The position numbers and the translations under genes were made by a program. Below, in pieces: positions 7,805 through 11,240 of a stretch of DNA of 64,000 nucleotides. Origin of the DNA: a virus. The first letter of the stretch is position 1; every line of letters starts with the position of its first letter. Where the stretch lies: positions 11,109 through 75,108 of the IMG/VR virus record IMGVR_UViG_3300032315_001657; one strand, 5' to 3'. Under the pieces are notes generated by a model. The model had not been told where the DNA came from and did no database searches. It saw only the letters and a program-made list of their open reading frames with translations.

Positions 7805-8560
7805 ATGAATAAAAAAAGTTTAAATTTGGATATGTCAACTAGTGGCTATACGAATTTAGCAGGTATAGCTACTCTTTATAATGAATTTTTTTCTCGGCAT
7901 GATTATAGATGGTGGTATGAGGTACACCCTGGAGATATTGTTGTGGATGTTGGTGGTTGTATTGGTATGTTTACCTGTTTAGCTTTAGATAGCGGTGCAA
8001 GTAAAGTTTTTACAGTAGAACCTAATCCATCCCTCGCAAAAACTATTCTCAAAAATGCATCAATACACATTTTTAATAAAAAAGACTCACCTGTAACTAT
8101 TATTAATAAAGCTATTGGTACTGACAGTACTTATTTTAAACACATATATGGTAATAAATATATGAACTCAAATGATATTGGTGCTGAATTAACTGAAGAA
8201 GAATTTAATGCTTTAGAGCTAATATCCTTTAAAGAATTTATAAAGCAATACGACATTAAGCATATAGATTATCTTAAGATAGATTGTGAAGGTGGAGAGT
8301 TTGATATTTTAACTGCTGAAAACCTTGATTTTATAAAAAATAATGTAAAGCATATAGCTGTAGAGTTTCATATAGGGGCTTTTGAAGATGGCCCAGAAAG
8401 ATATAATAAATTTAAAGATACTTTTTTATCTCAATTTGATAAAAGTAAAATTAAGTTTTTAAACTCTGAAGATTATGAAAAAGCTTTTAATATAGACTGG
8501 ACAAAACGACAAGAGGGATGGAGAACAAGTGTCTTTATGATATACATATGTAATTTTTAA
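7805..8560 (+). CDS. FkbM-family methyltransferase
   Basis: VVDVGGCIGMF, VEPNP, IDYLKIDCEGGE, VEFH. Confidence 0.9.
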   Translation: MNKKSLNLDMSTSGYTNLAGIATLYNEFFSRHDYRWWYEVHPGDIVVDVGGCIGMFTCLALDSGASKVFTVEPNPSLAKTILKNASIHIFNKKDSPVTIINKAIGTDSTYFKHIYGNKYMNSNDIGAELTEEEFNALELISFKEFIKQYDIKHIDYLKIDCEGGEFDILTAENLDFIKNNVKHIAVEFHIGAFEDGPERYNKFKDTFLSQFDKSKIKFLNSEDYEKAFNIDWTKRQEGWRTSVFMIYICNF

Positions 8561-8626
8561 AAAATTACTAAAGAAATTAAACTTTATATTTGCAATACCT
8601 TATTAATACAATAAATTTATAGTGTT

Positions 8627-8740
8627 ATGAAATACATCCTACTCGCAGTTTTGGTAGTCTCTGCTGTTATGACTACTGCTTGTGCCTCTAAAAAAGAATG
8701 CACACCATGTAATAAAACTGTCGTCACCACGACTAAATAA
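8627..8740 (+). CDS. Small putative lipoprotein (37 aa)
   Basis: Manual translation MKYILLAVLVVSAVMTTA-CASKKECTPCNKTVVTTTK shows a signal peptide and a lipobox-like Cys; below the ORF-track cutoff. Confidence 0.6.
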   Translation: MKYILLAVLVVSAVMTTACASKKECTPCNKTVVTTTK

Positions 8741-8821
8741 TAATAATGTTTTATTACATACAAAACGAAAATAATAGAAAACCTCCCTTTACGGGCTGAG
8801 TTCTTGATTCGTTTTGTTTTG

Positions 8822-8854
8822 AGACCCGGCCCTAAAAAGCCGGGTTTTCTTTTT
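8822..8854 (+). terminator. Rho-independent terminator upstream of the tRNA array
   Basis: ACCCGGC-CCTAAAAA-GCCGGGT followed by TTTCTTTTT. Confidence 0.75.
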
Positions 8855-8888
8855 GATCTTTGATAGCTTTAATCTTAAATAATTTTTC

Positions 8889-8970
8889 GGGTAGATCGCA
8901 TAGTGGCAATTGCCGGAGACTGTAAATCTCCTCTCATTAGAGTTCGTAGGTTCGAGTCCTACTCTACCCA
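8889..8970 (+). tRNA. tRNA-Tyr(GTA)
   Basis: GGAGA-CTGTAAA-TCTCC anticodon arm, long variable arm, GGGTAGA/TCTACCC acceptor. Confidence 0.95.
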
Positions 8971-8983
8971 TATTTTAATAATT

Positions 8984-9054
8984 TGGCTCGTAGTGTAATG
9001 GTAACACCAGAGAATTTGGATCTCTTAATCATAGTTCGAGTCTATGCGAGCCAG
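8984..9054 (+). tRNA. tRNA-Gln(TTG)
   Basis: TGGCTCG/CGAGCCA acceptor; AGAGA-ATTTGGA-TCTCT arm. Confidence 0.9.
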
Positions 9055-9061
9055 TTTTTAG

Positions 9062-9090
9062 TTGCACAATTTAAAAGATTCCGACATAAT
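9062..9090 (+). promoter_or_regulatory. Sigma70-type promoter
   Basis: TTGCAC-17 nt-CATAAT, ATG 7 nt downstream. Confidence 0.55.
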
Positions 9091-9097
9091 AACAACA

Positions 9098-9271
9098 ATG
9101 AAGCTTTTAAAGCAGCCCTGGGAAAAATATGGCATAACCGAAATGGCATATTTAATGGCTTACACACAGGGATACCAAGGGGCATTTAGATCTCCTGACA
9201 CCACCTATAAGCATGGTACAGTACTTAGAAAAATTTATAATAAAGGAAGAAGAGAGGCTAAACAATATTAA
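9098..9271 (+). CDS. Hypothetical protein
   Basis: ATG at 9098 right after a promoter (MKLLKQPWEK...). Confidence 0.55.
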   Translation: MKLLKQPWEKYGITEMAYLMAYTQGYQGAFRSPDTTYKHGTVLRKIYNKGRREAKQY

Positions 9272-9438
9272 TGAAATTAGACTTAGACATTTTATATGCT
9301 TTTGTACTCTGCATACTCATAGCTGTTTTTACAATTCAATCGCGAGAAATTAAAATTTTGCAAACTGAAATTAAAGAGCTTAGAATTATTGTTGATCAAA
9401 AATTCTTACCTCCAGTAAATACAGATAAAAATTTGTAA
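9271..9438 (+). CDS. Small single-TM/coiled-coil protein (55 aa)
   Basis: Manual translation MKLDLDILYAFVLCILIAVFTIQSREIKILQTEIKEL...; start overlaps the upstream stop. Confidence 0.5.
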   Translation: MKLDLDILYAFVLCILIAVFTIQSREIKILQTEIKELRIIVDQKFLPPVNTDKNL

Positions 9439-9478
9439 TATGGAAGACTTTGACGGTTTAGGAATTTAATGAATTCTA

Positions 9479-9569
9479 GCTGGGTTAGTGTAATTGGAAG
9501 CACCGACAGTCTTATAAACTGTGTGCCCTAGATGAGGGCCGAGCATGGGTTCAATTCCCATACCCAGCA
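9479..9569 (+). tRNA. tRNA-Ile(TAT) with a long variable arm
   Basis: GCTGGGT/ACCCAGC acceptor; ACAGT-CTTATAA-ACTGT arm; V-arm GCCCT-AGATG-AGGGC; ATGGG-TTCAATT-CCCAT T-arm. Confidence 0.85.
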
Positions 9570-9597
9570 TATTTTTTTTTTGATCTTTTACATTTTA

Positions 9598-9670
9598 GGG
9601 GTGGTAGCTCAATGGTTAGAGCAGTCGGCTCATAATCGATAGGTTGACGGTTCGAATCCGTCCCGCCCCA
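9598..9670 (+). tRNA. tRNA(CAT), most like Ile2 (lysidine type); elongator Met possible
   Basis: GTCGG-CTCATAA-TCGAT arm; paired G1-C72 and no three consecutive G-C pairs, so not an initiator. Confidence 0.85.
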
Positions 9671-9677
9671 CATTTTC

Positions 9678-9749
9678 GGAACGGTAACTCAATGGTAGAG
9701 TAGCGCCCTTTTAAGGCGTAAGTTCTGGGTTCGAGCCCCAGTCGTTCCA
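9678..9749 (+). tRNA. tRNA-Lys(TTT)
   Basis: GCGCC-CTTTTAA-GGCGT arm, canonical cloverleaf. Confidence 0.95.
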
Positions 9750-9768
9750 TATTAAATAGCTCTTTAAT

Positions 9769-9843
9769 ACCTAGGTAGCACAGCGGTAGTGCAGCGCACT
9801 GTTAATGCGCGGGTCGTTGGTTCGAATCCAACCCTAGGTGCCA
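9769..9843 (+). tRNA. tRNA-Asn(GTT)
   Basis: GCGCA-CTGTTAA-TGCGC arm; G73 plus CCA. Confidence 0.95.
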
Positions 9844-9851
9844 TTTTAAAA

Positions 9852-9923
9852 GTCTCGTTCGTTCAAGGGATAGGACCGAAAACTTCTAATTTTCTAATGT
9901 AGGTTCGAGTCCTACACGAGACA
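9852..9923 (+). tRNA. tRNA-Arg(TCT)
   Basis: GAAAA-CTTCTAA-TTTTC arm; GTCTCGT/ACGAGAC acceptor. Confidence 0.92.
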
Positions 9924-9944
9924 TACATTTAAATATACAATAAC

Positions 9945-10016
9945 GTCGCCATCGTCTAACGGTTAGGACACATGGTTTTCATCCATGTAATCGGGGTTCG
10001 ATTCTCCGTGGCGATG
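9945..10016 (+). tRNA. tRNA-Glu(TTC)
   Basis: CATGG-TTTTCAT-CCATG arm; GTCGCCA/TGGCGAT acceptor. Confidence 0.92.
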
Positions 10017-10070
10017 CTTTATATTTTTAGTTGCCGGTCTATTAATCCCCTCTATACTTTTCATAACTCT

Positions 10071-11240
10071 ATGTCTAAAATTCAATTACCTAAAAACATA
10101 GGTCAAGGCAAACCAGCTAAAATTAAGGAAAATGTTCAGTATTTTGATACATCTCATCATGGTTCATTTTTTCCTTTTGGTGTATATTTCACTACTACTC
10201 ATGGAGTAATGCCTTCTACTATTCATATTAACAAAACGTATACAGAAGATTTAATTTTCTTTTTAAGAGAAAAAGGCGAAATCTTTCAAGATCTTGTCTC
10301 TATTCCTGCAACTTCTCCTCGATCCATGACTCTTAGTATGTATCAAGATGACTTTGAAACAGAAGAGCCAGAATATAAAGGTACTTTCCTTTATAAGGAT
10401 TGTGTAATTAATTTTCAAAGAACACCTTCTCGTAAACATAAAAAGTCTGCTGAAACACCACCGCTTTTTACTATCTCAATTTATTATAAACCTGGTACTA
10501 CACCTCCAGTAAAGGATTTTGATAAATTTTTATTTGAAGAAAAACTTAATAGTGTAATTCATACTATTTTTCGAGATGAGCACGGAGGAATTGTTTTTGA
10601 GCCTTTTGAAACTGTTGTACCTGAAGGTTATTCAGTAGAAAAATATTACACTAAAGACTTTCAACCGATTCATAAACATATTGTTGATACTCTTCAAAAA
10701 AATGAATCTGGGTTATACCTCTTTCATGGGGAGCCTGGAACTGGTAAAACAACTTATATTAAATACTTAGCAAGTGTTCTTAAAAGAGATGTAATTTATG
10801 TTCCGGTTGCTTTTATCGACTCTCTAGTTGATCCGTCGTTCTTACCAGCATTGCTTAAAAAGCGTCATTCGGTTCTTGTTATTGAGGATGCTGAAAAAGC
10901 CTTATTAGCTCGAGAGCCAGGCGATTCGTCCTCCCTTGTTTCAGCTATCCTCAATATAACTGATGGTATTATGGGTAATGTGTTTAGTATATCGGTTATA
11001 GCTACTTACAATTCCCCTAGAGCAGGGATTGATAAAGCTTTGCTTCGTAAGGGAAGATTAAAGGGAGAGCATAAATTTGATAAACTTCCCGTAGAACAAG
11101 TTCAAAAAATTCTGGATGATAATAAGATTAATTTTACCGCTAAAGAGCCTATGTCCTTGGCAGAAATATTTAACACCCAAGAGCCCGACTCTTTGAATAC
11201 TAAATCTTTAGTCGAAGAAAAAAGAATGGGCTTTTTTTAA
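10071..11240 (+). CDS. AAA+ ATPase
   Basis: Walker A GEPGTGKT, Walker B LVIEDAE, DKALLRKGRL. Start moved to 10071 because 9972 lies inside tRNA-Glu; promoter TTGCCG-16-TATACT at 10031-10058. Confidence 0.9.
   Translation: MSKIQLPKNIGQGKPAKIKENVQYFDTSHHGSFFPFGVYFTTTHGVMPSTIHINKTYTEDLIFFLREKGEIFQDLVSIPATSPRSMTLSMYQDDFETEEPEYKGTFLYKDCVINFQRTPSRKHKKSAETPPLFTISIYYKPGTTPPVKDFDKFLFEEKLNSVIHTIFRDEHGGIVFEPFETVVPEGYSVEKYYTKDFQPIHKHIVDTLQKNESGLYLFHGEPGTGKTTYIKYLASVLKRDVIYVPVAFIDSLVDPSFLPALLKKRHSVLVIEDAEKALLAREPGDSSSLVSAILNITDGIMGNVFSISVIATYNSPRAGIDKALLRKGRLKGEHKFDKLPVEQVQKILDDNKINFTAKEPMSLAEIFNTQEPDSLNTKSLVEEKRMGFF

Follow-up and report, generated by a model that had tools for sequence, protein, structure and literature searches.

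A probable leader-peptide attenuator ahead of a tRNA array in an uncultured T4-like phage

The phage, the leader and the tRNA array

The window analysed here is a stretch of 64,000 nucleotides, part of a 75 kb viral contig in IMG/VR whose completeness is estimated at about 35%. The contig encodes a helicase, a family-B DNA polymerase, a large terminase, a tail sheath and a tape-measure-like protein, and the large terminase shares 30-37% identity with those of T4-like phages of cyanobacteria, Pseudoalteromonas and Rhizobium. This gene content, together with the terminase identities, indicates that the phage is an uncultured, distant T4-like myovirus. No close relative was found among cultured phages, where the matches were limited to tRNA genes. 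The T4 late-promoter octamer TATAAATA is depleted in the window, with 6 copies against 14 expected (7322, 36591, 38007, 60158 and 61100 on the forward strand and 63441 on the reverse strand). Most of the copies lie directly upstream of ORFs, which would fit real late promoters in a T4-like phage.

What stands in front of the tRNA genes of this phage? The features are collected in Table 1, where the array in the window is called array 2 and the element ahead of it leader 2. The initial annotation of the stretch had pointed to a TAAATA, a 17-codon ORF embedded in a long hairpin, and a strong terminator before tRNA-Tyr. All of these are there: the TAAATA at 8734-8739, the ORF at 8746-8799 inside a hairpin spanning 8760-8817, and the terminator at 8821-8854, 34 nt ahead of the tRNA-Tyr gene that starts at 8889. 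The peptide encoded by the 17 sense codons is MFYYIQNENNRKPPFTG. The hairpin is closed by the arms ACAAAACGAA (8760-8769) and TTCGTTTTGT (8808-8817), and the terminator stem pairs 8821-8830 with 8839-8848 (-16.1 kcal/mol), followed by a T-run through 8854. The stretch 8725-8860 folds at -33.2 kcal/mol with z = -4.3, and none of 200 shuffles folded as well. No Rfam family was found for the leader. A T-box riboswitch was ruled out, as no T-box model matched within 8000-10500 at E up to 1.

Table 1. Features of leader 2, tRNA array 2 and the second leader (window positions unless another contig is named)
Feature	Position	Strand	Remarks
Attenuator-like element of leader 1	L044:7760-7897 (G000 contig, 3.3 kb upstream of window start)		ORF with predicted helices 1:2, 2:3 and 3:4
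Promoter-like site TTTATA-18-TACAAT	8583..8612	+	consensus scan, 9/12 matches; ahead of the lipoprotein gene
Lipoprotein-like ORF, 37 aa	8627..8740	+	stop codon 5 nt before the leader ATG
Gene-junction motif TAAATAATA	8734..8742	+	stop of one gene, then start region of the next; core invariant in all variants
Leader ORF	8746..8799	+	17 codons and UGA stop; ATG at 8746, TGA at 8797-8799
Putative regulatory codons 3-12	8752..8781	+	Tyr Tyr Ile-AUA Gln Asn Glu Asn Asn Arg-AGA Lys
Region 1	8760..8787	+	5' strands of hairpin 1:2: ACAAAACGAA, then AGAAAACCUCCC
Region 2	8793..8817	+	invariant GGGCUGAGUUC (contains the UGA stop) and UUGAUUCGUUUUGU; predicted partner region 1 or 3
Region 3	8819..8832	+	terminator 5' arm UUGAGACCCGGCCC; predicted partner region 2 (antiterminator) or 4 (terminator)
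Region 4	8839..8854	+	terminator 3' arm GCCGGGUUUU and U-tract
tRNA-Tyr(gta), tRNA-Gln(ttg)	8889..9055	+	first genes past the terminator
tRNA-Ile(tat), Met(cat), Lys(ttt), Asn(gtt), Arg(tct), Glu(ttc)	9479..10017	+	remainder of array 2

The promoter-like site ahead of the lipoprotein-like ORF might be where the leader-carrying transcript starts. This ORF is retained in most relatives; in three others (L008, L009 and L040) it has been lost through an internal deletion, and the leader is still present there. Its product has a signal peptide, a lipobox Cys and a further conserved Cys, and could be a spanin or an exclusion lipoprotein.

On the other side of the terminator, tRNA-Tyr lies downstream of leader 2 in every copy long enough to tell. 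It starts 31-40 nt past the terminator in the window and in L036, L043, L009, L035 and L041. In 8 of 14 relatives (L002, L005, L006, L008, L015, L038, L040 and L042) a conserved reverse-strand gene of 55-68 aa is placed between the two, for example L006:2806-3012 (-) and L005:3077-3244 (-). It has the shared motif LG[FY]VY[GS]MYG and is absent from the window. After this reverse gene, still in the same gap, there is a sigma-70-like promoter TTGACA-N16-TTAAAT in each of the three relatives read (L002, L005 and L006). A sigma-70 promoter in the corresponding gap of the window was also considered and not accepted, the sole candidate being a weak TTGATC-N16-TTAAAT (8/12) seen by eye and lying below the scan threshold. 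In relatives with the reverse gene, readthrough would be antisense to that gene, and the array of L002, L005 and L006 would have a promoter of its own. The arrangements with and without the reverse gene are interleaved among the leader types. Thus an attenuator would not be the sole route to expression of these tRNAs.

The array itself shows two further peculiarities. It is interrupted at 9062-9438, between tRNA-Gln and tRNA-Ile, by two small ORFs (69 and 55 aa), and inserts at this and other gaps of array 2 vary in size among relatives, reaching 2.3 kb in L010. Its tRNA-Ile(UAU), at 9479-9569, has a long variable arm and measures 91 nt, which is unusual for an Ile tRNA; the length is 90-95 nt in most relatives and, according to ARAGORN, 72 nt in L002 and L035.

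Conservation and alternative structures of leader 2

For comparison, 15 distinct copies of leader 2 were gathered from viral and metagenome contigs, of which 14 are full length and one, L022, is incomplete. They came from a protein scan with the downstream AAA-ATPase and from pattern scans of both kinds of contigs. Note that the metagenome pattern was constrained by the invariant 11-mer and the terminator, and the body of the ORF was left free. The variants are closely related, with a mean column identity of 82%. A diverged leader 2 was sought in the more distant contigs G005 and G006, where array 2 itself was not found. In L010/G004, array 2 stands behind a plain promoter without leader 2, and the other leader described below is present.

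The leader ORF is open in 15/15 copies. It varies from 15 to 18 codons, with the identical ATG and the identical GGC-UGA end. Two or three indel events have occurred within the ORF, all of them 3 or 6 nt in size, and the indels directly past the stop codon measure 1 nt. The N-terminal part of the peptide, M-F-Y-Y-I-Q-N, is conserved. In the C-terminal half the type of residue varies freely, with the frame and the RNA pairing retained. Within this otherwise variable element one 11-nt block, GGGCUGAGUUC, is invariant, which is explained by its double pairing role and the stop codon it contains.

How would translation of such an ORF start? The motif TAAATAATA at its front is over-represented in the window, with 10 matches versus 5.0 +/- 2.1 expected. 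Nine of these precede a same-strand ORF start by 0-12 nt (sites at 8734, 16009, 20238, 20860, 22033, 23091, 36810, 56587 and 58712), and an overlap with the previous gene's stop is frequent. In a phage that is mostly without Shine-Dalgarno sequences, it has the look of a signal for gene junctions or for initiation. Because the motif stands so close ahead of many ORF starts, the leader ATG appears to sit in the normal stop-restart junction of this phage, and for TAAATA this reading seems to fit better than a T4-type late promoter giving a leaderless mRNA. The missing Shine-Dalgarno sequence at the leader is normal here, since just 5 of the 64 long ORFs of the phage have one.

A search for alternative, antiterminating structures had been proposed in the initial annotation, and a candidate was found by folding transcripts truncated just before the 3' arm of the terminator. 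In the window this helix 2:3 pairs GGGCUG (8793-8798) with CGGCCC (8827-8832), G8800 with C8826, and UCUUGA (8802-8807) with UUGAGA (8819-8824). It uses the 3' strand of hairpin 1:2 together with the 5' arm of the terminator (8793-8807 with 8819-8832), and since it shares strands with both it excludes both. It is predicted in 14/14 full-length variants at -15.3 to -19.2 kcal/mol, and only 0-4.6% of dinucleotide shuffles of region 2 reach the native energy. Across the variants hairpin 1:2 is predicted at -11.9 to -19.5 kcal/mol and the terminator 3:4 at -16.1 to -20.6 kcal/mol, so that by these calculations the three helices are comparable in stability and energetically balanced. RNAalifold recovered hairpin 1:2 and the terminator; the compensatory changes are confined to the terminator stem, and the paired columns hardly vary. 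Helix 2:3 is conserved, and no covariation was detected for it in a chimera test of region 2 against region 3, in which native and chimeric pairs folded equally well (-17.7 vs -17.5). Another candidate antiterminator, in which AGAAAACC pairs with the 3' arm of the terminator and the U-tract and so abolishes the terminator, came from equilibrium folding of the full-length RNA with a masked ribosome and was dropped: it is confined to the window and its two nearest copies and is unconserved elsewhere.

The effect of a ribosome was modelled by masking a footprint assumed to run from -15 to +12 nt of the A-site. When transcripts ending before region 4 were folded in this way, helix 2:3 formed with the ribosome at codon 5, 8 or 11. 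With the ribosome on the UGA (8797-8799), which is positioned inside region 2, region 2 was covered, helix 2:3 did not form and the terminator arm stayed free. In equilibrium folding of the full-length leader with a masked ribosome, the terminator is favoured in most relatives, whatever the stall position. Therefore a switch of this kind must be kinetic, as in trp.

Codon content of the two leaders

Which codons would a stalled ribosome be reading? The stall span, over which a stalled ribosome can mask region 1 with region 2 still accessible, was defined as codon 3 to the last codon at which the footprint ends before GGGC, which is codon 12 in the window. The initial annotation had read the consecutive codons of the leader as those decoded by the downstream tRNAs for Tyr, Ile, Gln, Asn, Glu, Arg and Lys. 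The tRNA calls of array 2 bear this out: codons 3-12 in the window are array-2 codons in 10/10 cases (P = 0.004 against stop-free shuffles with the 63% A kept), compared with 6/9 and 3/9 in the other two frames. Outside the span, codon 2 (Phe) and codons 13-17 (Pro, Pro, Phe, Thr and Gly) include none of the array-2 set; in some relatives one late codon (AAG, AGG, CAG, ATG or AAC) falls within it. Among the variants, 13 of 15 have a complete match over the span, from 8/8 to 10/10, and the other two have 9/10 with a CGY at codon 3. The match gives P values of 0.0003-0.01 versus stop-free shuffles of the same composition, which control for A-richness at the level of mononucleotide composition only, and the other frames reach 3-7 of 7-9. 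The correspondence is above what AT bias would give in every relative compared, which was one of the checks named in the initial annotation. At positions 8, 9, 10 and 12 the relatives show 13 codon states, all 13 of them inside the array-2 set, and the isoacceptor-specific codons AUA and AGA are invariant.

Several facts bear on how surprising this match is. In the long ORFs of the phage, 36% of all codons belong to the array-2 set. A six-frame count over the 64-kb window gives 5 runs of at least 10 array-2 codons, so a codon run by itself is unusual but not unique. The array-2 set consists largely of A-rich NAN codons and includes 8 of the 9 sense codons with at least two A; region 1 needs A-richness to pair with its U-rich arm, and the codon match is thus partly forced by the structure. 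A relaxed tRNA search found the content of array 2 to be nearly identical among relatives, so that a test of covariation between leader and array among them is without power. There is a lone anecdote, that L002 has neither tRNA-Met nor an internal Met codon and L022/L003 have both.

Is there an independent case? Outside the window the contig carries another array, array 1, with 15 tRNAs: Gly x2, Thr, Cys, Ile(GAU), Pro, His, Ala, Leu(UAG), Ser x2, a tRNA with anticodon CAC, Trp, Asp and Arg(ACG). It too is preceded by a leader. The leader-1 ORF (L044 7760-7834) has 24 codons and is followed by a long 1:2 hairpin; helix 2:3 is predicted as GCGGGU/ACCCGC, and the terminator is CCCGCUG...CAGCGGG with U's behind it. 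The stretch folds with z = -6.6, and under masked folding it behaves like leader 2, with which it has no sequence in common. The ORF is open in five distinct variants of 23-25 codons with the common end TAA-GCGGGTAT. Their interiors have diverged almost beyond alignment, and what is kept is the amino-acid composition, not the sequence. From 18 to 20 of the 22-24 codons belong to the array-1 set (P 0.0001-0.03), compared with 9-13 of 21-23 in the other frames, and just 1-4 are codons of array 2, versus the 36% of phage codons given above. The mismatching codons are mostly codon 2 or the last three, outside the stall window. Judged by its predicted folds and codons, leader 1 is an independent second case of the four-region logic with the amino acids of its own array, and the codon correspondence of leader 2 is mirrored there. 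Between the leader-1 terminator and the first tRNA there is a spacer of about 95 nt (L044:7900-7994) that is well conserved in all the diverged variants, with conserved pieces such as CCTGAATCAC...CCGTGAATCCGTGGGT...GAGGTGTAGGTTCAT. This spacer matched no Rfam family and could be a structured RNA or serve in processing as a signal.

A mechanism, its alternatives and its meaning

We consider it probable that leader 2 is a multivalent, ribosome-mediated (leader-peptide) transcription attenuator of the trp/ilv type that gates transcription of array 2. As far as can be judged from sequence, the element itself has all the anatomical features that define leader-peptide attenuators; the tRNA genes directly follow it in the window and in five relatives, and the reverse gene intervenes in eight others. 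The scenario would be as follows. A transcript carrying the small lipoprotein gene continues into the 17-codon leader ORF, which is presumably translated. If no ribosome is on the leader, regions 1 and 2 would pair, the 3:4 terminator would form, and transcription would end 34 nt before tRNA-Tyr. If the ORF is read fast, the ribosome at the UGA would cover region 2 and the terminator would form again. Should decoding slow down anywhere within codons 3-12 (Tyr, Ile-AUA, Gln, Asn, Glu, Arg-AGA or Lys), the ribosome would cover region 1 only; region 2 would then be free to pair with the 5' arm of the terminator, and RNA polymerase would read through into the cognate tRNA genes. The outcome would be a multivalent feedback, in which the tRNA block is expressed whenever one of the charged tRNAs it encodes runs low. 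A ribosome-stalling sensor of array-2 transcription was what the initial annotation had proposed, and both helix 2:3 and the codon match support it. As to what makes the tRNAs short, phage codons rare in the host, host shut-off and host anticodon nucleases are possible causes. Anticodon nucleases target the Lys, Glu, Gln, Tyr, Asn and Arg(UCU) classes of tRNA, all of which are in array 2. The trigger named in the initial annotation was that host tRNAs are depleted or cleaved; a simple feedback on the supply of phage tRNAs would fit equally well.

Are there other explanations for the same features? One keeps the attenuator and gives it a non-specific input: any slowing of translation, by amino-acid starvation, host shut-off or ribosome shortage, would open the switch, and the codon match would be a by-product of the A-rich arm in leader 2 and of the GC-richer stems in leader 1. 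The make-up of the array-2 set, with its 8/9 of the sense codons rich in A, and the 63% A of region 1 point this way. With two leaders and two arrays, moreover, the prior for a match at the level of composition is about 1 in 2, and no covariation of leader and array is seen among relatives, whose arrays are nearly identical. However, for each leader and in every variant more codons belong to the set in frame than in the other two frames or in shuffles of equal composition, the matched codons end where the stall window ends, and the isoacceptor-specific AUA and AGA codons do not change. We therefore regard a non-specific input as rather unlikely. The element might instead be a plain 3' end of the lipoprotein unit, made of a stabilising hairpin and an intrinsic terminator between convergent genes, in which the ORF is accidental. 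A convergent gene does follow the terminator in 8/14 relatives, and among variants as close as these (82% mean column identity) the paired columns hardly vary. But the ORF is open in 15/15 copies with in-frame indels only, the element persists in the three relatives with the lipoprotein-gene deletion, helix 2:3 is better than shuffles, and before array 1 there is an unrelated twin whose ORF is far more diverged and yet open. This makes a plain 3' end improbable.

The remaining two explanations concern a product of the element. The terminated transcript, of about 110 nt from leader start to terminator and longer from the lipoprotein promoter, might act in trans as a small RNA with GGGCUGAGUUC as its seed, with or without attenuation. 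An 11-nt invariant block in an otherwise variable element would suit a seed, a hairpin followed by a terminator is the usual shape of a small RNA, and there is a precedent in rnTrpL, reportedly a small RNA derived from an attenuator. Yet two alternative pairings and the stop codon account in full for the invariant block, and no Rfam family covers the element, so there seems to be little chance that this is its role. The ORF might also encode a functional micropeptide of 15-18 aa to which the RNA structure is incidental, as the conserved M-F-Y-Y-I-Q-N would allow. Against it stand the free variation of residue type in the C-terminal half, where frame and RNA pairing are kept, and leader 1, which preserves amino-acid composition and not sequence; a micropeptide is very unlikely and is given the slightest credence here.

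How does a multivalent attenuator of this kind relate to known systems? Multivalent leaders are familiar from enterobacteria in ilvGMEDA (Ile/Leu/Val) and thr (Thr/Ile), alongside trpL, hisL and pheL. Leader 2 is like these leaders, whose ORFs have 14-32 codons, in its short leader ORF, in regulatory codons placed where a stall frees region 2, and in mutually exclusive 1:2, 2:3 and 3:4 helices of similar predicted stability. It is also like them in an intrinsic terminator ahead of the genes that would be regulated and in a stop codon placed so that a finishing ribosome would block the antiterminator. It differs in that the regulated genes would be tRNA genes in a phage and not those of biosynthetic enzymes. 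Where the enterobacterial leaders have runs of one to three amino acids, it has seven or eight codon types used once or twice each, and its ATG lies in a stop-restart gene junction without a Shine-Dalgarno sequence. Because so many codons would be sensed, the ilvGMEDA and thr leaders are the closest to it. Genes of the translation apparatus are placed under the control of tRNA charging by the pheST attenuator (with its pheM leader) and by T-box riboswitches. As in these, the output would be a component of the decoding machinery, the input would be the supply of charged tRNA, and the choice would be between terminator and antiterminator. However, pheM senses a single amino acid, and T-boxes bind the uncharged tRNA themselves, by means of a specifier codon and the T-box sequence, and involve no ribosome.

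The tRNA clusters of T4, T5 and other phages are regarded as helpers for codon usage or as a counter to host anticodon nucleases. Array 2 resembles them in being a tRNA array of a T4-like myovirus with Lys, Tyr, Asn, Glu, Gln and Arg tRNAs. It differs in its leader, as no leader-peptide control was found described for those clusters in a full-text literature search. Nor did the search turn up tRNA genes of any phage or cell under the control of a leader peptide. Among published cases of accessory tRNA arrays, the closest in regulation that we found is the trn operon of Anabaena sp. PCC 7120, a silent array of 26 tRNA genes that is induced under translational stress (PMC8421152, PMC10272220). 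Its control is at the promoter, where the repressor TrcR binds direct repeats that span the -10 box and the start site (PMC8421152, PMC10272220), and the terms 'attenuat', 'leader' and 'terminator' are absent from the text of the paper (PMC8421152). The phage array would likewise be an accessory tRNA array switched on when translation is impaired, but its control element would be a leader ORF with a terminator switch instead of a promoter-bound repressor.

What would be new, then, is tRNA genes as the target and the codon-by-codon listing of an array, the classical mechanism of attenuation being known. Phage tRNA genes are usually discussed as constitutive helpers of codon usage or as spares against tRNA-cutting defences, and to our knowledge hardly anything has been described about their regulation. 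Much more tentatively, it is possible, though in our view doubtful, that large phages commonly keep each tRNA block behind a codon-matched multivalent leader attenuator that gauges decoding speed and responds to scarcity of the matching host tRNAs, or to their cleavage by anticodon-nuclease defences, by turning the block on, as an inducible counter-defence. If the proposed mechanism is true, classical attenuation would be extended from amino-acid metabolism to the decoding machinery. The leader would also offer a compact natural sensor of codon-specific decoding speed, usable as a reporter of tRNA depletion in studies of phages and defence systems, and the tRNA supply of infected cells would be under direct closed-loop control.
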